A stretch of DNA of 64,000 bases from sequence record MZ311865.1; one strand, 5' to 3'. This document shows, one piece after another, positions 22,484 to 50,232 of this stretch. A program made the position numbers and the translations under genes. A model generated the notes under the pieces. It worked only from the letters and a program-made list of their open reading frames with translations. It was not told the DNA's origin and did not search any database. This DNA comes from Escherichia phage vB_EcoM_LNA2. Position 1 is the first letter of the stretch. Each line of letters begins with the position of its first letter.

Positions 22484-23584
22484 TTACGCTGTGAAGATTT
22501 TATCCCACATCGCAACAACTGCATCTCGATTATACTTCTTCCATACTGCTTCAGCACGTTTAACTCGAGCTTCGTATGTGTCAGTGAATTCTAATACAGC
22601 TTTTGTGTAAAGCGCAACTACTTCTTTCTTAGGAGTAGAGGAATCAATTTCTACACGCACAGTATCTGGGTCGTATTCGAATGTCGCATGAGGATAATCC
22701 TTAAAAACTAACTGGATTACAGGGACACCTTTAGAGATGGCTTCAATAGAACTATTCTCTACCGTACCTGTGTCAGGACACGTATTAATAAGTGCTTTAG
22801 CTGTTTTAAGACGTTCCATAATTTCACTGTGTGGAGCATCAATAATAACAGGATATTTAGCCGGTGGCGCCCATTTACTAGGACAGTATCCTACACCATT
22901 TTCGCCTAGTGCTTTAATCGCTTCAAGAGCAACATCAGTACGACGCATTTTAGTGTCATAACGTTGTGCACTAATAATCAGATCCGTCGCCGGAAGAACT
23001 TCTGGCTTTTCAGTCAAACAAATAACCGGATAATCTTCGGCTTCAAACAACGGATTTGCTCGCCAATAATCATAATCAATTTTGTCAGTCAGACCTGAAG
23101 TCATATAACAATATTTGCGTTCAAATTCACGGAAGGCTTTAGTAGGAGCATAGCTCTTCCCACCATTCTTATGAATTTGAATAGTCTGGTCCCAAATTTG
23201 AACAATGCCACGAGATACTGGTTCAAATGGTGTTGCCATAAAATTCTTATGAACTTTAGAGAGACCTGCGTCTTTAATTGCCTGAACGGTTAGTTTAGTC
23301 GGTTCCATAGTAACAACAAAATCGTATTCATGGATGCCGGCTAGTTCAACAATCTTACGAGCCATAGTATAACTCATACCTAGACTGAATTTTGTCAGAT
23401 GACCAACAGGATGATGATTAACTTTCCAATCACCAAATGTGTCATTATCAAAACCGATATAATCAATATCAGCACCGATGGACACAAGATATTTCAACAC
23501 GTTCAAATGAACCGCTTCAAGACCACCTTGTACACGTTCTGGGTTAAATGGGACTGCACGAGATGGGATAAACATAACTTTCAT
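22484..23584 (-). CDS. GT-B fold glycosyltransferase, candidate hmC-DNA (arabinosyl)transferase
   Basis: 366 aa; C-terminal GTVENSSIEAISKGVPVI resembles GT-B donor-binding motif; occupies T4 gene 60/mobA slot between rIIA.1 and 39. Confidence 0.6.
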   Translation of the reverse strand: MKVMFIPSRAVPFNPERVQGGLEAVHLNVLKYLVSIGADIDYIGFDNDTFGDWKVNHHPVGHLTKFSLGMSYTMARKIVELAGIHEYDFVVTMEPTKLTVQAIKDAGLSKVHKNFMATPFEPVSRGIVQIWDQTIQIHKNGGKSYAPTKAFREFERKYCYMTSGLTDKIDYDYWRANPLFEAEDYPVICLTEKPEVLPATDLIISAQRYDTKMRRTDVALEAIKALGENGVGYCPSKWAPPAKYPVIIDAPHSEIMERLKTAKALINTCPDTGTVENSSIEAISKGVPVIQLVFKDYPHATFEYDPDTVRVEIDSSTPKKEVVALYTKAVLEFTDTYEARVKRAEAVWKKYNRDAVVAMWDKIFTA

Positions 23585-42074: not shown

Positions 42075-42437
42075 TTAAAAGAATTTAAATTTTTTCTTGG
42101 TCCGTTCATTAAAAGCTTGTTGTACTTGCATTGTAATACATTTTTCAACATGCGGTGCAAGTTCTGCTTTTCTGTCCTGGTCAAGAACTGCAAAGTCCAT
42201 TACGATTTTACCATCAACCCAGTCTAGTTTTGTAATATAGACTATATGATGAGAACCATCTTCAAGTGTAATCAGAATCTCTTGAATGACATTTTCCATT
42301 GCTGAACGGATAATTTTAAGAGATTCATTAAACACTCGTTCTTTGCGAATGTCTTCCCCTTCCGAAGAAGGGGATTCATCAACGATTTCTAGATTTAAAT
42401 CATCGAGATTATTCATCGAAATCTTCCATTTCATCAA
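42075..42437 (-). CDS. 40: gp40-like head vertex assembly chaperone candidate
   Basis: 120-aa ORF between uvsX and 41 as T4 gene 40; assignment by synteny only. Confidence 0.45.
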   Translation of the reverse strand: MMKWKISMNNLDDLNLEIVDESPSSEGEDIRKERVFNESLKIIRSAMENVIQEILITLEDGSHHIVYITKLDWVDGKIVMDFAVLDQDRKAELAPHVEKCITMQVQQAFNERTKKKFKFF

Positions 42438-43581
42438 GGTCGTTTTCTATATCTGCTGCAGACGGAGCATCAGAAGTTTTAACCGGAACTTTAGTTGTTG
42501 CTTTGCAATTAATAAGGTCATTAACAGCGTCATCAACTTCTTTAATAGAAGAGATAGCACCTAGTTTATATTTAGTTTCAATTGCATCTCGGAAAGGTTT
42601 GTGTTTAAACAAAGGTCCCCAGAATTCTACACAATCAGTAGCTTTAGCACGCCATGATTTTTCTTCACGAATCATTTCGCCAGTTTCTTCGTCAAGGAAT
42701 TCACGAGCATACCAACCAGCTTTAGGCTTAACTACAAAACCAATTTCAGTTGCCATTTCTAACAAGCCACTGAATGGGTCGATACCACCATCAAAATTAA
42801 CAGTGATTGGGAAAGTAGATTTTTCTTTAACGGTGCGAGATTTTTCCGCTTTCAACGTGAAGTCATAACCGGTCAATTCTGTACCTTCTTTAACCTGACG
42901 TTTAGAGATAAAAAATACCGTGTTGGCAGAATAAAGAATACCTGTACCACCACCCATAATCTCTTTAGGATACAATCCGCCGATTTCCATTGCTGTATGG
43001 TTGATTGCAACACATGGAATATCTTTAATAGTCAGATAAGGAGTCACAATGCGGAACAGAGATTTAAGTGCCTTAGCACGAGACATATCACCTACAACTT
43101 TCTCGTTCAATGCATCTTCAGTTTCTTTCTTAGATGCAGTATTACCGATTGAATCGATAAAGATAATAACTTTATCACCGCGTTCAATCGCGTCAAGCTG
43201 ATTAGTCATATCAACTTTAAGTTGTTCGACAGATTGAATCGGAGTATGAACTACACGGTCTAAATCAACACCCATTGAACGAAAATAAGATTCTGAAGCA
43301 CCAAATTCAGAATCATAGAACAAACAAATTGCATCTTTATATTTCTTCATATATGCTGCAACCATGGTCAGCCCAAACAACGTTTTAAAGTGTTTAGAAG
43401 GAGCAGCAAAAATAGTTAAGCCTGATTGCAACCCGGCATTCAGTGCACCACCTAATGCAATATTCAACATCGGAATACGAGTAGGGACTTCATCACGATT
43501 ATTAAACAGCTTAGACTTAGTCAAGTCTGCAGTCATTTTAGAAGTAGAAGCTTTAATCAGACGAGATTTTAAATCAGACAT
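42409..43581 (-). CDS. uvsX: UvsX recombinase (RecA-like)
   Basis: 390 aa; MSDLKSRLIKASTSK...KNGWYAREFLDEETGEMIREEKSWRAK...FWGPLFKH.PFRDAI matches recalled T4 UvsX. Confidence 0.9.
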   Translation of the reverse strand: MSDLKSRLIKASTSKMTADLTKSKLFNNRDEVPTRIPMLNIALGGALNAGLQSGLTIFAAPSKHFKTLFGLTMVAAYMKKYKDAICLFYDSEFGASESYFRSMGVDLDRVVHTPIQSVEQLKVDMTNQLDAIERGDKVIIFIDSIGNTASKKETEDALNEKVVGDMSRAKALKSLFRIVTPYLTIKDIPCVAINHTAMEIGGLYPKEIMGGGTGILYSANTVFFISKRQVKEGTELTGYDFTLKAEKSRTVKEKSTFPITVNFDGGIDPFSGLLEMATEIGFVVKPKAGWYAREFLDEETGEMIREEKSWRAKATDCVEFWGPLFKHKPFRDAIETKYKLGAISSIKEVDDAVNDLINCKATTKVPVKTSDAPSAADIENDLDEMEDFDE

Positions 43582-43680
43582 TGTATTTTTCCATAGGCAT
43601 CATTATATTTTACTCATGTTTAAAAGATAAGACGATTATATAATAAGGGTTATACAGCATTTAAAACTTTAAACAGGCTC

Positions 43681-44229
43681 TTAACGAGCCCATTTGATAA
43701 TTTCTGTAATCAAATTATTACGTTCGCTTGCATTAAATCCTATAACTTTGTTAGCACCATCATGATTAAGTAATTGATACGTTTGGATTTCGTTATGAAT
43801 TGCAAACTCTTCAAAATATGAAATGACTGTATTAAAACCAAATGAAGACAAAGTAATAAGGTCGTCTTCAAAACTTTCAGTCATTTCGTTACGTGTTAAA
43901 ATAATTGTGAACACATCATGGTTTTGGCAAAGACGAACATAGTCCTGTTCATAAACGTCAAGAACCGAGTCCGCATCTTGTCGAATACGTCCGTAAACCC
44001 AGTTACTAATATATCCACGGTCTAATAGATAAATCTTAGTAGGGTCTAAATAATTCAACATCGTTTCGAAACAGCCAACTTCATTTCGAGACTTAACATC
44101 GAAACGTCCATCAACTGTTCGTTTAGGGAAATCAATCTTTACATATCTTTCACTAATTTCCATTATGTCATTAATGAAAGTTGTTTTACCAGCATTATCT
44201 GGGCCATCTACTAAAATAATTTTAGCCAT
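43681..44229 (-). CDS. P-loop NTPase / small kinase-like protein
   Basis: 182 aa; Walker A LVDGPDNAGKTT at N-terminus; occupies T4 uvsX-beta-gt interval. Confidence 0.5.
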   Translation of the reverse strand: MAKIILVDGPDNAGKTTFINDIMEISERYVKIDFPKRTVDGRFDVKSRNEVGCFETMLNYLDPTKIYLLDRGYISNWVYGRIRQDADSVLDVYEQDYVRLCQNHDVFTIILTRNEMTESFEDDLITLSSFGFNTVISYFEEFAIHNEIQTYQLLNHDGANKVIGFNASERNNLITEIIKWAR

Positions 44230-44230
44230 T

Positions 44231-45130
44231 TTATTCCTCGATTACGACATCTTCATATTTAGGTATATTATACGGTGAAGAAATTAAAGCGTTAAAGTAG
44301 ATGAACTCACCAAGACCTGGATGGAATACTTCTTCAGGATTTTCGAAATATTGAATTTTCGGACGTCCTTTAAGAATTTGATAGTACTCAGTTTTAGTTG
44401 GTTTAAAAATTCGAATCAACGCTTCTTCAGGATACTTATTTCTGTCGAAGCTATTATTTGGATCGGTTATATAAAGCGGTTGACCTAATTGAATTGCGCA
44501 TTCAACAACTTGTTCAAAACGATAGCATGGGTCACTAATTCGAAATGGATGAAAAATACCATCTAGATGAATAGGAGCCAAATCACCTACAAGACGCTGC
44601 ATGATGGAAGGACGTATAACTTTCTGCGTTACGATAATCTTATTACCATCTGCACCAGCGTTAACCAGCACTTCTTTTTGACGTTCATTCAACACAGTAG
44701 TTTGAAGTGAACGATTAACCGACAACATATCGGTTTTTAAGAATTCGTCAATATAAAAACGTGGTTTATTAGGGTCTGCAGTGATATTGAAATTGAATTC
44801 CGCATCAAAAGCGCCGTCATATCCAGTGATATCTGTGATTAGAAAATCACAGTCATAATAAGCAATTAATGAATCAACCACAAATTCATTTTCAGACCAG
44901 AAATATTTACGAGTGTTATACGCGTTATCTTTATACCATAATGGAACAAACTTAAATTCTGGAAAAAGACGTTCGCATTCTTTAATATCAGATGCATTAC
45001 GTGGATATGTAATCACATCACCCGGATTAGCACGGTGCAAATGAAGTTGGAAGTTGCCATCCTTAAGGATAGCATACTGTCCAGTTTCATAAGACCGCAT
45101 ACTCAAGATAGGTACGCGGAAAATAGCCAT
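44231..45130 (-). CDS. hypothetical protein in beta-glucosyltransferase slot
   Basis: 299 aa between uvsX and gene 42 where T4 has beta-gt; no resemblance to recalled T4 beta-gt. Confidence 0.5.
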   Translation of the reverse strand: MAIFRVPILSMRSYETGQYAILKDGNFQLHLHRANPGDVITYPRNASDIKECERLFPEFKFVPLWYKDNAYNTRKYFWSENEFVVDSLIAYYDCDFLITDITGYDGAFDAEFNFNITADPNKPRFYIDEFLKTDMLSVNRSLQTTVLNERQKEVLVNAGADGNKIIVTQKVIRPSIMQRLVGDLAPIHLDGIFHPFRISDPCYRFEQVVECAIQLGQPLYITDPNNSFDRNKYPEEALIRIFKPTKTEYYQILKGRPKIQYFENPEEVFHPGLGEFIYFNALISSPYNIPKYEDVVIEE

Positions 45131-45846
45131 TAGTCAAGGAATCCTTTAACATAATCAAAATCACGTTCAAACACATGGGCACTTACCATGGTATGAGTAT
45201 AATCACCAACTTCTACACCACATTCTTTAGCGATATAATGAAGTAATTTTCCTTGGAGATAAAAATCCAACTGCATAACAACAGCACAGTTCTGAGAACG
45301 CATATGACAGTGGGTATAAAGCTTACCATCACGAATATAATAAGTCACTGAGTCAGTACATGGATATTCAAGTGTTTCGTCCGAATCAAGCAAAGCCTGA
45401 TCAGAACTTTCTAGAATTTGGAACACAACTCTTCGAGAGTTAGGCTTCTCTTTAAGTTCTTTTAGAAGAGCTGGTAATTGGGCCGCAATGCGAGGACCAT
45501 AGAAAGTGTTGAAGTTCGCCGGCAAAACATCTGATTTTGGTTTAGAAATAAATTTAGCGACATTAGGATATGCCTTAAACGCTTCTTCTGCGTTGGTACC
45601 ACCAGAAATCATAAACTTCCAGAAGTCTTCGGCATATTCATAAGAGATGCGGTTAATACGTGGGTCGGTCATTTTGAATGATGATGGAGTGTCAACAACT
45701 ACTGTCATAGACCCAATTTCATTACAACGTCCAATACGAGAATCAGTTACGAATTCCGGGTTTTCTAAAATTTCACGATTGACAGCTTTAAATGCGGATT
45801 GAAAATCTGCGGCTTTAATATATTTCATTGTGTTATGTTTTCCCAT
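45130..45846 (-). CDS. 42: dCMP hydroxymethylase gp42 (thymidylate-synthase fold)
   Basis: 238 aa; YPCTDSVTYYIRDGKLYTHCHMRSQN resembles TS/dCH catalytic-Cys region; conserved position. Confidence 0.75.
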   Translation of the reverse strand: MGKHNTMKYIKAADFQSAFKAVNREILENPEFVTDSRIGRCNEIGSMTVVVDTPSSFKMTDPRINRISYEYAEDFWKFMISGGTNAEEAFKAYPNVAKFISKPKSDVLPANFNTFYGPRIAAQLPALLKELKEKPNSRRVVFQILESSDQALLDSDETLEYPCTDSVTYYIRDGKLYTHCHMRSQNCAVVMQLDFYLQGKLLHYIAKECGVEVGDYTHTMVSAHVFERDFDYVKGFLD

Positions 45847-45978
45847 GTTTACCTCAATACAATTTATTATATACTCAATTCATAAAGCTTATTTGAATTT
45901 CTTAGCGATGTTGATATAACGTAAAGCTTCAGCATCGATATTTCCAAGAACACTATGAAGAAATGCATCAGCGTAGTA

Positions 45979-46128
45979 TTACAGTTGAACAGGTTCTTTA
46001 ATCACTTTAGCCGCTTTAGTTTCAAACAGGCCCATCAGGGCCTTTTTAAGAATTTGTTCGTTAGTGTTCAGTTTCGTAGTCAAAATCTCTTCATTAAGTT
46101 GGTGGTTAAAAGTTTTTCTAGAAATCAT
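45979..46128 (-). CDS. small protein (49 aa) coupled to Cys-rich enzyme gene
   Basis: Hand-translated MISRKTFNHQLNEEILTTKLNTNEQILKKALMGLFETKAAKVIKEPVQL; ATGA overlap with upstream gene. Confidence 0.3.
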   Translation of the reverse strand: MISRKTFNHQLNEEILTTKLNTNEQILKKALMGLFETKAAKVIKEPVQL

Positions 46129-47285
46129 TCCGGGTACCTCAAAGCGTCATCAGAGTTAGTTATATCAATAATAGATATAGAGTTTTCTGATAACCCATTT
46201 TTAGATAACTGACGTTTATAATATCTTTCACAATATGTACACGTTGACCCACAGATTTCATTAGCACAATCGAAATCTGGATGTCTGAACCACCTTTTTT
46301 CTAAAAAGCCATCTAACAAAGAGGTTTCAATATTTACTGTATGTGAAAACTCAGTTTCGTTTTCAAGAGTGAAAATAGTCTCTAAAGGCTTCCACAGTTC
46401 TAACAAATTACCTTCAAACTTTTCAGAAGCGTATGCTTCAAGAACTTTCAAAATGTAGTCTGTGCTACCTGTACGTCCTGAAACTTTGAATTGAGTGATA
46501 CCAATATCATTATAAAGTTTCAAATCTTGAGGACGAACAAAACGAGTTCTCAACCAGTTAAATGGGTCTGTATCACGAGCTTTAATACAGTGCTGCATAG
46601 GATATCCGTTTAAGGATTTAGCATCATCAGCTGTAACATCAGTACTATGGAAAATATAGCAAGAGTCACGATAGCTACAATGTGTTGTATACCCTTTACC
46701 AGCATTAGAACAGAACTCATTTACAAGAACTTCAAATATTATATTGTTCTTATTACAAAACTCTGCTGCACGCTTCAGGAAAGAAACTGAACGGTTCTTA
46801 TGAATTCCACAGCAGACCTTTTTGATATTATATTGGTCGTGCAAGTATTTGATTTGAGTTACAGCATCGACATGTAGAATTGTTGAAACTTCAATCTCAA
46901 TGTCTTTATTGACTTCACGAACAATTTCCATAACAACAGGGTTAGCGATAGTAATACGCCATACGCCTATTGACCAAAGATACTGAACATAATCCTGAAT
47001 AGCTTTCTTCTTCCACTCAACTAGTTCTCTTTTTGAACCAGGATTTATCGTGTTGAGTGTATAGTTAAAGCAAATACCTAATTCGTTACAACGTTTAACG
47101 TAATCTTCTAACATCTTTTTGTCAACGTCAGGAAGCCTAAAATCAGGTCTGGCTGCTACAAAAGCCATTTCTCTTGTAGAGCCGTATACTTCGTTTATCA
47201 AGCTATTAGGATAAGTTTTATTGAGCTCTACGATTTTATCAAGAAGAGCTAAATCAAAATTCGTTCCGATTTTAAAAGTATTCAT
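46125..47285 (-). CDS. Cys-rich enzyme of unknown function (possible Fe-S/metal enzyme) in sugar cassette
   Basis: 386 aa; Cys clusters VCCGIHK, EFCSNAGKGYTTHCSYRDSC, C-terminal DCANEICGSTCTYC (CX3CX2C). Confidence 0.5.
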   Translation of the reverse strand: MNTFKIGTNFDLALLDKIVELNKTYPNSLINEVYGSTREMAFVAARPDFRLPDVDKKMLEDYVKRCNELGICFNYTLNTINPGSKRELVEWKKKAIQDYVQYLWSIGVWRITIANPVVMEIVREVNKDIEIEVSTILHVDAVTQIKYLHDQYNIKKVCCGIHKNRSVSFLKRAAEFCNKNNIIFEVLVNEFCSNAGKGYTTHCSYRDSCYIFHSTDVTADDAKSLNGYPMQHCIKARDTDPFNWLRTRFVRPQDLKLYNDIGITQFKVSGRTGSTDYILKVLEAYASEKFEGNLLELWKPLETIFTLENETEFSHTVNIETSLLDGFLEKRWFRHPDFDCANEICGSTCTYCERYYKRQLSKNGLSENSISIIDITNSDDALRYPE

Positions 47286-47343
47286 TTTTTTGCATCTCGC
47301 GTTAATTGATGCGATGGTTTTTTTGCAGGTCTTACTTAAATTA

Positions 47344-47745
47344 TTATAGATTCGGTTTATACGATTTAAATGTTTCGAATTCGCCTTTATTCATAAGAGC
47401 TTTGAATTCGTCAGGACGCATAGCTTTGTCGTCGATAATCCAATCATATACTGGTTTATGTGTTAGCAAATTATGGTACTTCAAGCCAATGTTTGCCAAG
47501 TTCTGAATCAGACTTGGGAGAATGTCAATTGCTATACGACCAGGACCTACTGACTTCATACCGCGAGCAGTGTAAAGCGTTATGGTATGCCCTGCATCAT
47601 ACAGAGCATTAATGGCAGACACCATTTCGGTGTCTGGTTTGAAGTTCACGTAATCACGATTGTTATTCCATTCCGTGATGCAATCATCGACATCAAAACA
47701 AAGATTAAGCATGTTTTCTACACGGTGCATTAGATTCGTTCCCAT
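47344..47745 (-). CDS. HAD-superfamily phosphatase (KdsC-like)
   Basis: 133 aa; motif I FDVDDCIT, motif II ITLYTARG, motif IV WIIDDK. Confidence 0.6.
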   Translation of the reverse strand: MGTNLMHRVENMLNLCFDVDDCITEWNNNRDYVNFKPDTEMVSAINALYDAGHTITLYTARGMKSVGPGRIAIDILPSLIQNLANIGLKYHNLLTHKPVYDWIIDDKAMRPDEFKALMNKGEFETFKSYKPNL

Positions 47746-49415
47746 TGATGAGTGATATCGCCACCGATTGGACGATAGGAAACACCAGTTTCTTTATCAG
47801 TTAGTACCCATTTACCAGGATTTTTTGTAATCAGAGTAGCCGTTACAGGTTCTGCTACGTCATAACTAATAGAGCCGTCTTGAAGTACACGGCCCATATT
47901 ACGTAATTGCTTAGTCAGAAGTTCCATACCTTTATAATATGCGGCTACCGCTTTAAGTGGATTATTCTTGAAATAACCACCTAATGCAATCCAGATAATT
48001 GCTACAGCCAAATGATGATACTCGTTAAACGAACTCATCTTTCCATATTTGTAAACTAGTGGATTGATGTTAATAGTCACATTACAAGTTGTTTCGTCAA
48101 TAGTAAACTGTCCCCAGGTCGGATTAGCGTTGAATTCATCATAACCTGAAACAGCATAAAGCACTTTAGCTTCATCGTACAATTTTGGCCCGTAAATCTT
48201 GGTTTCACCAAAATATCCACGAGGGTCGATAAACTTGACTTCGCCGTTATCAGTAATCATAGTATTACTGAAGTTCGGGTCGCCGTGAATAACAGAGTAC
48301 TGTCCCTGAGAACGGTTATGATAACGAATAAGGTGTTCTAAAGCTTGTTTCAGCATTGGCTTCAGACGTCCAATCTTAGTGTAGTTCACATGTGTGATTT
48401 TACCAAATGAATCAATCAATGGTTGAATGCTTTCACAACGATCAATAACTTTCGTATAGAATTCTTTAGTGAAATCACGACGAACAGTTTCAGGACTTAC
48501 AAAATAAGTGTCTGTGCTGAATTTCAGTGCATCTAAAATTGCACCAACAATTTGTGGACGAGCAAGACTTGATTTGGATTTAATATATTCAAATGCCGGC
48601 TTACCTTTAATGCGTTCCATTTCAAAGTTATTTTCATTAACAGAAACTAACTGAGGGACTGAATCTGATTTCACTTTAAGATACCATGAAATCTCATCTT
48701 TCTGAAGAGCTCGACCCTGTTCGGTTAATGCGAATTTAGTTACAGTTTCTTCACCAATTTCAACTGCATTAAAACTACGATTAAGTTCACGAACTTCATG
48801 AGCTTTTTCAAGTTTAGGCATATCACCTAAATCAATTAGATTCATAAGCTCTGATTTATTGAATGTGCTGCCGTAAAGGAATTCTACGAAATCACGTCCT
48901 TTGCAGTATTCATGAATTTCCTCATCAGTAGAACCCATATAGAATTCCCAGTCTTTGAACTGATAAATTCCTACAACATTACCACCTGTTGAACCTACGT
49001 TAGTGATATTTTCACCGTCGAAATTATATCGACATTCGTCACCCTTAACATAGATTGCGTTAACATTCCAAGACCATGAACCAAAATCGGGAATAATATC
49101 ACACCAGTTAACAATTACGTTATGGCCGTCTAAATCTTTGTGTAATTTAGCAAGAGCATAAGCAGAACCATACGCTTCATCAACTGTACGAATAGTCACA
49201 TTGAACTCTTCTTGCTCACAATAAGCTCGAACAGTTTCAGCAAATTTTGAATGAACTACTACAATAATTTCATCTGCGCCAAGGTCAGAATAAATTGTAT
49301 ACAAATTGCTCAGAATAGTGTCTTGTTTATAGTTAACAAGCACCTTAGGAATATGATGCGTTATTGGATACAAACGAGTTGCTAATCCAGCACCAAGAAT
49401 AACAGCTTTTTTCAT
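47730..49415 (-). CDS. bifunctional sugar-1-phosphate nucleotidyltransferase / anomeric sugar kinase
   Basis: 561 aa; N-term KAVILGAGLATRLYPIT (RmlA/GalU-type); C-term VIHGDPNFSNTMI...FIDPRG (APH/choline-kinase-like catalytic loop). Confidence 0.65.
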   Translation of the reverse strand: MKKAVILGAGLATRLYPITHHIPKVLVNYKQDTILSNLYTIYSDLGADEIIVVVHSKFAETVRAYCEQEEFNVTIRTVDEAYGSAYALAKLHKDLDGHNVIVNWCDIIPDFGSWSWNVNAIYVKGDECRYNFDGENITNVGSTGGNVVGIYQFKDWEFYMGSTDEEIHEYCKGRDFVEFLYGSTFNKSELMNLIDLGDMPKLEKAHEVRELNRSFNAVEIGEETVTKFALTEQGRALQKDEISWYLKVKSDSVPQLVSVNENNFEMERIKGKPAFEYIKSKSSLARPQIVGAILDALKFSTDTYFVSPETVRRDFTKEFYTKVIDRCESIQPLIDSFGKITHVNYTKIGRLKPMLKQALEHLIRYHNRSQGQYSVIHGDPNFSNTMITDNGEVKFIDPRGYFGETKIYGPKLYDEAKVLYAVSGYDEFNANPTWGQFTIDETTCNVTININPLVYKYGKMSSFNEYHHLAVAIIWIALGGYFKNNPLKAVAAYYKGMELLTKQLRNMGRVLQDGSISYDVAEPVTATLITKNPGKWVLTDKETGVSYRPIGGDITHQWERI

Positions 49416-49456: not shown

Positions 49457-49600
49457 CTAGTTAAAGCATTCATACTTTGCTTGTAGTCCAATCATAATCC
49501 ATCCAATTACAAGTGTTGGAATCATTACTGGAGCCGTTAAGCTCCAGTAGATAGTCATGGCAAGCATCAATAGTAAAAGTCCTATTGTTATTGCTTTCAT
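49457..49600 (-). CDS. small membrane protein (47 aa) inside sugar cassette
   Basis: Hand-translated MKAITIGLLLLMLAMTIYWSLTAPVMIPTLVIGWIMIGLQAKYECFN; start overlaps SIS gene stop. Confidence 0.3.
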   Translation of the reverse strand: MKAITIGLLLLMLAMTIYWSLTAPVMIPTLVIGWIMIGLQAKYECFN

Positions 49601-50232
49601 TGTTCGCCTCGTAACATGGCACCTAGTGCACCGCCTGGATGGAACTTAAGGAAGTCATTAGAGGTAAATCCACGTTCAGACGAAAGGTTGATAGCAAACG
49701 TATCGATAAGCGCTAACAACAATGTAGTGGACATAGTCGGAGCCAGAGAATTCTCATCAACCTCTACCGCGATGCCTGTACAGAAAGAGTAATCAAAAAG
49801 GGCTTCATTTTCTTGTGGAATGTCTGGGTTACAATGCAACAGAATCTGTTTGACGTTCGGTCGAATCATTTTAAGATGCTTAGCCACGCCTATCATTTCT
49901 TCAGTTTTACCAGAACGACTAATATGAATCAACACATCATTAGGCGCAATGAATCCTGCATCACCGTGAGAATAATGCCCAGTGTTCAAGTACATACTCG
50001 GGATACCGAGTGAAGCAAATGTCTCAGAAGCTTTAGTTGCAATATTAGCATTCTTACCAACACCTGTAATAATTACTCGGCTTTCATAATTACTAAGTCC
50101 CGGGCGTCGAAGAGTTTCTAGAATAGCATTATAACGAGCAGGGTTTTGACTAATTACTTTGGCCATAGCGGCCAAAGAAGAAGCTTGTTTTATGATTGCG
50201 TCAATAGCGATAGTAATAGGAGTAGTTTTCAT
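49597..50232 (-). CDS. SIS-domain sugar-phosphate isomerase (KdsD/GutQ-like arabinose-5-phosphate isomerase, no CBS domains)
   Basis: 211 aa; VIITGVGKNANIATKASETFASLG...LIHISRSGKTEE resembles SIS domain of API. Confidence 0.65.
   Translation of the reverse strand: MKTTPITIAIDAIIKQASSLAAMAKVISQNPARYNAILETLRRPGLSNYESRVIITGVGKNANIATKASETFASLGIPSMYLNTGHYSHGDAGFIAPNDVLIHISRSGKTEEMIGVAKHLKMIRPNVKQILLHCNPDIPQENEALFDYSFCTGIAVEVDENSLAPTMSTTLLLALIDTFAINLSSERGFTSNDFLKFHPGGALGAMLRGEQ

Follow-up and report, generated by a model that had tools for sequence, protein, structure and literature searches.

A predicted GT-B glycosyltransferase and a thymidylate-kinase-like protein in the beta-gt position of an RB69-like phage as probable members of an arabinosyl-5-hydroxycytosine pathway

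The stretch of DNA analyzed here (the window) comprises 64,000 nucleotides of Escherichia phage vB_EcoM_LNA2 (MZ311865.1), an RB69-like Mosigvirus whose nearest relative is Shigella phage JK42 (98.8% DNA identity). We consider two of its open reading frames (ORFs), situated beside the gene for the uvsX recombinase (42409-43581, minus strand; Pfam T4_UVSX_C E 1e-38, RecA). The initial annotation had described this interval as holding a Walker A protein of 182 amino acids (aa) and a 299-aa protein, and both ORFs are indeed present there on the minus strand. The first, at 43681-44229, encodes a thymidylate-kinase-like deoxynucleoside monophosphate (dNMP) kinase orthologous to RB69 gp45, DLP3 gp78, and Thanatos TH1_064. 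The second, at 44231-45130, encodes a compact GT-B glycosyltransferase, a putative first (base-proximal) arabinosyltransferase, with RB69 gp46:47, DLP3 gp79, and Thanatos TH1_063 as orthologues. Next to it, at 45130-45846 on the same strand, lies the gene for a 238-aa ThyA-family protein, a predicted 5-hydroxy-dCMP synthase. In the counterpart interval between uvsX and gene 42, T4 does carry beta-gt, as the initial annotation stated, together with segA.

The three genes are arranged end to end. The ThyA-like gene and the 299-aa ORF overlap in TAATG, and the junction between the 299-aa and 182-aa ORFs reads TAAAATG with GAGGAA just upstream. Probably they form a tight three-gene unit (synthase, glycosyltransferase, kinase) inside an arabinosyl-5-hydroxycytosine cluster, with our two ORFs at its end. 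More than 150 Mosigvirus genomes match the region at 98 to 99% identity, among them APCEc01, NicPhage (98.5%), NRG-P0074, RB69, and HY126, and the cluster proteins of HY126 are 96 to 100% identical to those of the window.

The 238-aa neighbor had been taken for gene 42. It shares only 25% identity with T4 gp42 and is essentially identical to the protein of PDB entries 9iqc, 9ir2, and 9iqu (E 2e-160). Its active-site stretch is MRSQNCAVVMQLD, compared with MRSNDVVFGFRND in T4 gp42, and reads MRSQN...QLD, with Asn at the position of Asp169 in E. coli ThyA (D169N). This substitution is described as the signature of 5-hydroxy-dCMP synthases by Lee et al. (NAR 2026; PMC13326640), and RB69 gp48 makes 5-hydroxy-dCMP using O2 and flavin (PMC13326640). 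Judged by its sequence, the neighbor is a flavin-dependent 5-hydroxy-dCMP synthase and no dCMP hydroxymethylase. Because of this assignment, the DNA of the phage is expected to carry arabinosyl-5-hydroxycytosine, not glucosyl-5-hydroxymethylcytosine. The DNA of RB69 contains mono- and di-arabinosylated 5-hydroxycytosine (PMC13326640), which replaces the arabinosyl-hydroxymethylcytosine first proposed by Thomas et al. in 2018. The same modified bases are reported for the Mosigvirus NicPhage (PMC13390438), and arabosylated 5-hydroxycytosine has been shown since 2025 for RB69, HY126, Bas46/47, DLP3, and others. The proposal that the two ORFs are candidates for steps of a modification pathway thus stands for a transferase and a nucleotide kinase, whereas its hydroxymethylcytosine chemistry gives way to 5-hydroxycytosine. 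T4 beta-gt acts on the hydroxymethylcytosine that a gp42-type hydroxymethylase provides; the enzyme upstream of the 299-aa protein is instead the 5-hydroxy-dCMP synthase.

The AlphaFold model of the 299-aa protein, computed with an alignment of 65 homologues, has a predicted local distance difference test score (pLDDT) of 95.4 and a predicted template modeling score of 0.89. In it, a cleft separates two alpha/beta domains of Rossmann type, the arrangement of a GT-B fold. Structure prediction with Foldseek comparison, which the initial annotation had put forward as a check, gave an answer for both proteins: orthologues followed by viral glycosyltransferases among viral models for the 299-aa protein, and a thymidylate-kinase fold for the 182-aa protein. 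Sequence searches are far less telling for the 299-aa protein: whether it was searched singly or as a profile of 65 sequences, nothing in Pfam, NCBIfam, PADLOC, or PDB matched, and it belongs solely to PHROG 3891, a family of unknown function. It lacks a GT4 sequence profile (Pfam Glycos_transf_1 or the EX7E-type donor-binding motif), and profile comparison of its family with the phage's own GT4-like transferase of 366 aa gave no signal. Two segments, F193-x-P-F-R197 and H270-P-G272, are invariant in the family alignment. They may lie at the positions where GT4 enzymes have their donor-binding motifs. The lack of resemblance to T4 beta-gt noted at the outset is borne out in sequence (best BLASTP E 3.7; hhalign probability 0.2%), and homology to beta-gt was rejected on that basis.

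At 99% identity, the ORF corresponds to RB69 ORF046c plus ORF047c, and the HY126 orthologue (XAN60474) is likewise 99% identical; the proteins of DLP1-type Acinetobacter phages are about 46% and Thanatos TH1_063 is 47.5% identical. As RB69 gp46:47 has been assigned as putative arabinosyltransferase 1 (PMC13326640), the predicted structure reproduces, at the level of a model, an assignment already published. A result obtained with the Thanatos orthologue does not agree with this assignment: His-tagged TH1_063 forms UDP-xylose from UTP and xylose-1-phosphate in vitro (PMC12838424). The 299-aa protein could on these grounds be a UDP-pentose pyrophosphorylase, joining a sugar-1-phosphate and UTP to a UDP-sugar, and no transferase at all. 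We consider this very improbable, as it conflicts with the GT-B fold, and the cluster already has a protein with an NTP_transferase domain, the HY126 orthologue of which is described as a UDP-arabinose pyrophosphorylase. Transfer assays with TH1_063 on unmodified plasmid DNA, dCMP, dCTP, and cytosine were negative, but all of these lack a 5-hydroxyl acceptor (PMC12838424). The UDP-xylose result for TH1_063 (locus L005, 5995-6897) may itself reflect a contaminant or a mix-up.

Which arabinose the 299-aa protein would transfer can be approached through a second arabinosyltransferase, the 366-aa protein (RB69 ORF003c, gp3) encoded at 22484-23584 on the minus strand, about 21 kb off and beside the rIIA/topoisomerase region. 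This protein is essentially identical to the crystallized HY126 glycosyltransferase (PDB 9iqz/9ir0, E 6e-249). It occurs in 211 phage records, only of Mosigvirus-type and Acinetobacter phages, with no Serratia or Shewanella record among its matches. Phages LC53 and Thanatos are both reported to be mono-arabinosylated, Thanatos in PMC13326640. In both, the genes for the 299-aa transferase and the kinase are arranged as in the window, the 299-aa protein being the sole glycosyltransferase of this kind in them. Since these mono-arabinosylated phages have the 299-aa transferase and no match to the 366-aa enzyme, the 299-aa protein most likely adds the base-proximal sugar, as the primary transferase and the functional counterpart of beta-gt. 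It is then not the extra transferase for multi-sugar chains that the initial annotation had envisaged. The chain-extending enzyme is the 366-aa glycosyltransferase, whose presence in the genome predicts di-arabosylated 5-hydroxycytosine in the window phage.

The 182-aa ORF starts with MAKIILVDGPDNAGKTT, and its listed translation (MAKIILVDGPDNAGKTTFIN...) shows the Walker A motif GPDNAGKTT. The protein matches PHROG 761, annotated as thymidylate kinase (E 5e-45), and its predicted model (pLDDT 86.5) has a P-loop nucleoside monophosphate kinase fold with thymidylate kinases as nearest structures. G9, D11, N12, G14, K15, T16, D70, R71, S75, and Y79, which cover the P-loop and the DR motif, are invariant in 25 homologues. 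The family motifs are the P-loop G-x-D-N-x-G-K-T and LDRGYISNWVY, the counterparts of which in E. coli Tmk are GLEGAGKTT and GDRHDLSTQAY. With this fold, these motifs, and the label thymidylate kinase in many records, it is conceivable that the protein is an ordinary dTMP kinase with a housekeeping role, merely located beside modification genes. However, the cut-offs for dTMP kinases are not reached, there being no Pfam Thymidylate_kin match and a TIGR00041 score of 15.6 bits where 83 are required, and hhalign of the family with E. coli Tmk aligned the P-loop alone (probability 79%). The base pockets of the family and E. coli Tmk were compared by manual inspection only; in this manual alignment, the Arg that comes four positions after Phe in 'MFYAAR' of E. 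coli Tmk corresponds to an invariant Leu58 ('FETML') in the phage family. This Arg presumably reads O4 of thymine in the E. coli enzyme.

The distribution of the gene speaks further against a housekeeping dTMP kinase. By tblastn, 348 phage records have the transferase and 343 the kinase, and the counts by genus nearly match (transferase/kinase): Escherichia 176/176, Acinetobacter 57/57, Shigella 15/15, Klebsiella 26/25, Enterobacter 9/9, Proteus 7/7, and Yersinia 6/6. The kinase thus occurs essentially only in phages with the 299-aa transferase, and it stays beside the transferase across very distant phages. Neither protein matches the T4 interval, and no Tequatrovirus record is among the matches listed; the equal presence in glucosyl-hydroxymethylcytosine phages against which the initial annotation had guarded is not what the tblastn distribution displays. 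Taken together with the Leu58 replacement and the profile scores, an ordinary dTMP kinase is improbable. Both ORFs are real genes, and their relatives fill 138 (transferase) and 27 (kinase) metagenome protein clusters.

We also took a census of 58 IMG/VR loci with transferase relatives, the ORFs of which were scored locally. In 43 of the 47 loci with enough flank, the gene immediately before the transferase encodes a ThyA homologue, and the N...D hydroxylase signature is present in 49 of 50 transferase-adjacent ThyA homologues of the IMG/VR loci. The placement of a 5-hydroxy-dCMP synthase with Asn169 beside the transferase is hence common to the window and the census. Wherever the transferase shares 33% identity or more with the query, the census locus also has the kinase in its cluster, as a rule as the next gene downstream. 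The Klebsiella-, Dhakavirus-, and Proteus-type loci have it upstream, with the HAD phosphatase on one side and the synthase on the other. In distant non-T4 phages, the kinase still adjoins the transferase, and the pair is also retained on an environmental T4-like contig of 216 kb, at 39% (transferase) and 28% (kinase) identity. One non-T4-like phage of the census (L059, 1-13709; IMG/VR 3300045988_171426) encodes a Pol III alpha-type polymerase and RecA. Its gene order is a dUTPase_2-type nucleoside triphosphate pyrophosphatase, a second glycosyltransferase, a thymidylate-kinase-like kinase, the transferase relative, and a U32-family protein, a set that looks, from its sequence, like a compact hypermodification module.

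The strict linkage to a hydroxylase also bears on the suggestion that one or both proteins are anti-restriction or anti-defense effectors, for which one could cite that this part of T4-like genomes is hyperplastic (PMC6024577). Such a role is hardly credible for proteins with clear enzyme folds and conserved catalytic-type motifs. There is no PADLOC match either, which carries little weight in that PADLOC models host defense proteins; the reading was rejected on the folds and the missing PADLOC match.

When these results are combined, a coherent role for the three-gene unit emerges as the probable one: it would serve the arabinosyl-5-hydroxycytosine pathway, with the kinase acting on a modified dNMP and the 299-aa protein acting as the first arabinosyltransferase on DNA. 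The ThyA-like flavoenzyme would convert dCMP to 5-hydroxy-dCMP, a reaction that published work has established for its orthologues in RB69 and HY126. The 182-aa kinase would phosphorylate 5-hydroxy-dCMP to the diphosphate, either redundantly with the gp1-type kinase or more efficiently, and host NDK would supply the triphosphate for incorporation by the phage polymerase. With UDP-arabinose as donor, the GT-B enzyme would then attach the first D-arabinofuranose to the cytosine 5-hydroxyl in DNA, a step suggested by fold, synteny, and distribution, and the 366-aa transferase would add the second arabinose.

The donor, UDP-arabinofuranose, would be provided by three further genes of the cluster, all on the minus strand. 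A SIS-domain arabinose-5-phosphate isomerase of 211 aa (49597-50232; RB69 gp55) is 99% identical to the product of an HY126 coding sequence annotated as D-arabinose-5-phosphate isomerase. A putative bifunctional sugar kinase/UDP-arabinose pyrophosphorylase of 561 aa (47730-49415; RB69 gp52:53, the analogue of HY126 AfhE) has a Pfam NTP_transferase match (E 5e-10), weak kinase-fold matches, and 96% identity to HY126, its role being taken from the literature (PMC13326640). The HAD-type phosphatase of 133 aa (47344-47745; RB69 gp51, the analogue of HY126 AfhF) matches PHROG 1238 (E 3e-43) with 99% identity to HY126, and its conversion of Araf-1,5-P2 (Araf, arabinofuranose) to Araf-1-P is likewise taken from work on AfhF (PMC13326640).

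Several observations weigh against this pathway, in addition to the UDP-xylose formed by TH1_063. Arabinosyl transfer by the 299-aa protein is not reported in the accessible literature. Single DLP3 glycosyltransferases were inactive on DNA containing 5-hydroxycytosine with UDP-Araf or UDP-Arap (UDP-arabinopyranose), and Lee et al. cannot tell whether the first arabinosylation takes place on the mononucleotide or on DNA (PMC13326640). With an isoelectric point (pI) of 5.1, compared with 9.05 for T4 beta-gt, the 299-aa protein is acidic, a weak hint against DNA binding. As for the kinase, the gp1-type enzyme RB69 gp159 already converts 5-hydroxy-dCMP to 5-hydroxy-dCDP, and gp159 and the synthase suffice for 5-hydroxydeoxycytidine in E. 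coli DNA (PMC13326640). Because gp159 handles 5-hydroxy-dCMP, a second kinase for this substrate is not obviously needed.

It could be speculated from some of the same observations that arabinosylation precedes replication. The 299-aa transferase would then arabinosylate free 5-hydroxy-dCMP, the kinase would be specific for the bulky arabinosyl-5-hydroxy-dCMP, and the polymerase would incorporate the glycosylated triphosphate, so that the gene order of synthase, transferase, and kinase would equal the reaction order. The inactivity of single transferases on 5-hydroxycytosine DNA and the choice between nucleotide and DNA left open by Lee et al. (PMC13326640) are compatible with such a route, as is the acidity of all transferase orthologues checked (pI 5.1 to 5.8). 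If a gp1-type kinase serves 5-hydroxy-dCMP, the conserved extra kinase needs another explanation, which arabinosyl-5-hydroxy-dCMP as substrate would offer. Moreover, the transferase and kinase genes are adjacent and tightly packed, and the pair is kept in distant phages with a different putative hydroxylase. Nevertheless, DLP3 gp76 and gp77 act on DNA (PMC13326640), and we regard a pre-replicative route as unlikely. The gene order is not fixed, the kinase being upstream of the synthase in the Klebsiella-, Dhakavirus-, and Proteus-type loci, and a plain 5-hydroxy-dNMP kinase role suffices in non-T4 phages that lack a gp1-type kinase. To our knowledge, every characterized phage DNA glycosylation is post-replicative, including those by T4 alpha- and beta-glucosyltransferase and others. 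The pre-replicative route would, if true, be the first phage case we know of in which a sugar-bearing deoxynucleoside triphosphate is polymerized instead of the finished DNA being glycosylated. Equally doubtful is a mobile hypermodification module that acts before replication and has the kinase-transferase pair as its constant core. We therefore retain, as the probable reading, transfer of the first arabinose to DNA by the 299-aa protein with the kinase acting on the modified mononucleotide.

A number of smaller features were observed around these genes. A scan of 43400-47500 for promoters and terminators gave counts not above those of shuffled sequence. The AT-rich spacer from the kinase stop to the uvsX start (43582-43680; 99 nt, GC about 0.3) contains AAATGCTGTATAACCCTTATTATATAAT, which by eye resembles a T4 middle-type promoter for uvsX, with a MotA-box-like TGCT followed by the -10 sequence TATAAT; it is absent from the list of the sigma-70 scan. 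Between the synthase and U32 genes, a small minus-strand ORF within 45889-46128 is cut to 49 aa in the window by an in-frame stop; its length is 79 aa in NRG-P0074 but 40 aa in HY126, and it looks like a decaying or dispensable gene. The HAD phosphatase and kinase/pyrophosphorylase genes overlap at 47730-47745 in the window. At this junction NRG-P0074 has an inserted homing endonuclease gene (L001 10283-11044 compared), and LC53 has a putative endonuclease nearby; the junction looks like a homing endonuclease hot spot.

Another neighbor, the 386-aa U32-family protein at 46125-47285 on the minus strand (RB69 gp50; Pfam Peptidase_U32 E 7e-11), is a candidate oxygen-independent hydroxylase. The observations on it are drawn from the window gene, L007 (3897-5407), L005 (7462-8852), L058, L059, L062, and L064. 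No other protein of the cluster is as conserved, with 79% identity to its Thanatos counterpart (transferase 47.5%, kinase 44%) and 79 to 84% across genera, and its 221 phage matches are all at 80% identity or above. Its carriers are phages of Enterobacterales and Shewanella, and its matches include no Acinetobacter phage, even though the transferase and kinase occur in 57 records of such phages. Enterobacterales and Shewanella are facultative anaerobes, and Acinetobacter is a strict aerobe. In 54 phage records the cluster includes a small chorismate mutase gene, beside the U32 gene in those inspected. The two genes are also neighbors in Thanatos-1, where U32 has another position within the cluster and the chorismate mutase is TH1_066 (Pfam CM_2 34.7 bits, cut-off 27). 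In the window, tblastn found no chorismate mutase, nor any sign that the small ORF separating the synthase and U32 genes is a remnant of one.

The four census loci without any ThyA homologue (L058, L059, L062, and L064) all carry U32 in the same cluster, and because of this every census locus has a ThyA-like hydroxylase, U32, or both. In three of the four, U32 follows the transferase immediately, in the order kinase, transferase, U32, with the Pol III alpha-type polymerase next in L059. The phage protein keeps three of the four cysteines aligned with conserved cysteines of E. coli U32 proteins and has an extra C-terminal C-x5-C-x3-C-x2-C motif. UbiU/V, RlhA (which forms 5-hydroxycytidine in 23S rRNA), and TrhP are U32 proteins tied to oxygen-independent, prephenate-dependent hydroxylation (PMC10990095; E. 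coli annotations), and prephenate is the product of chorismate mutase (PMC10990095). The phage protein looks like a hydroxylase of this kind, which could make 5-hydroxypyrimidine under anoxia. Lee et al. label the gene 'sugar or heterocycle reductase' with no mention of U32, prephenate, or chorismate (PMC13326640), and no proposal of a hydroxylase role was found in the searchable literature.

Both main genes have published descriptions from RB69, HY126, and DLP3, and the assignment given here, although correct in outline, is not new; it adds little as a discovery to a published RB69-type pathway into which both genes had been drawn. Its value lies in annotation, as most of the 340-odd records name the products 'hypothetical protein', 'RNA polymerase binding protein', 'thymidylate kinase', or 'dCMP hydroxymethylase'. 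With T4 as the template, the chemistry is mis-assigned to hydroxymethylcytosine and glucose instead of 5-hydroxycytosine and arabinose. Two further points deserve attention: the kinase is strictly co-conserved with the transferase although a gp1-type kinase already serves 5-hydroxy-dCMP, and the neighboring U32 gene may explain how 5-hydroxycytosine is produced in such phages without oxygen.

Placed among known systems, the 182-aa protein has the fold, the P-loop GxDxAGKTT, and the DRxxxS...Y motif in common with cellular and poxviral thymidylate kinases (2v54, 5x7j, and 4dwj), from which it differs in its low identity (8 to 19%) and its strict linkage to a cytosine-hydroxylation module. T4 gp1 is also a phage dNMP kinase that serves modified dCMP, but neither structure nor sequence makes the 182-aa protein its orthologue. 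No difference separates the kinase from RB69 gp45, labeled 'nucleotide kinase' (PMC13326640), DLP3 gp78, RL38J1_214, or Thanatos TH1_064 (44% identity), the substrate of which is undefined in the accessible literature. For the transferase, the RB69 reference record has the orthologue in two pieces, the frameshift in gp46:47 being ascribed to a sequencing error (PMC13326640); the window gene is intact and otherwise without difference of substance. The close systems by fold are GT4-type GT-B enzymes such as sucrose-phosphate synthase, BshA, PimA, and WaaG, in comparison with which the 299-aa protein has no profile match and is unusually short. T4 beta-gt occupies the same slot, between uvsX and a ThyA-family gene. 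It is also a GT-B enzyme that uses a UDP-sugar donor to glycosylate the C5 substituent of cytosine. The beta-gt slot is therefore probably still held by a base glycosyltransferase, one of another sequence family with another sugar and another acceptor.

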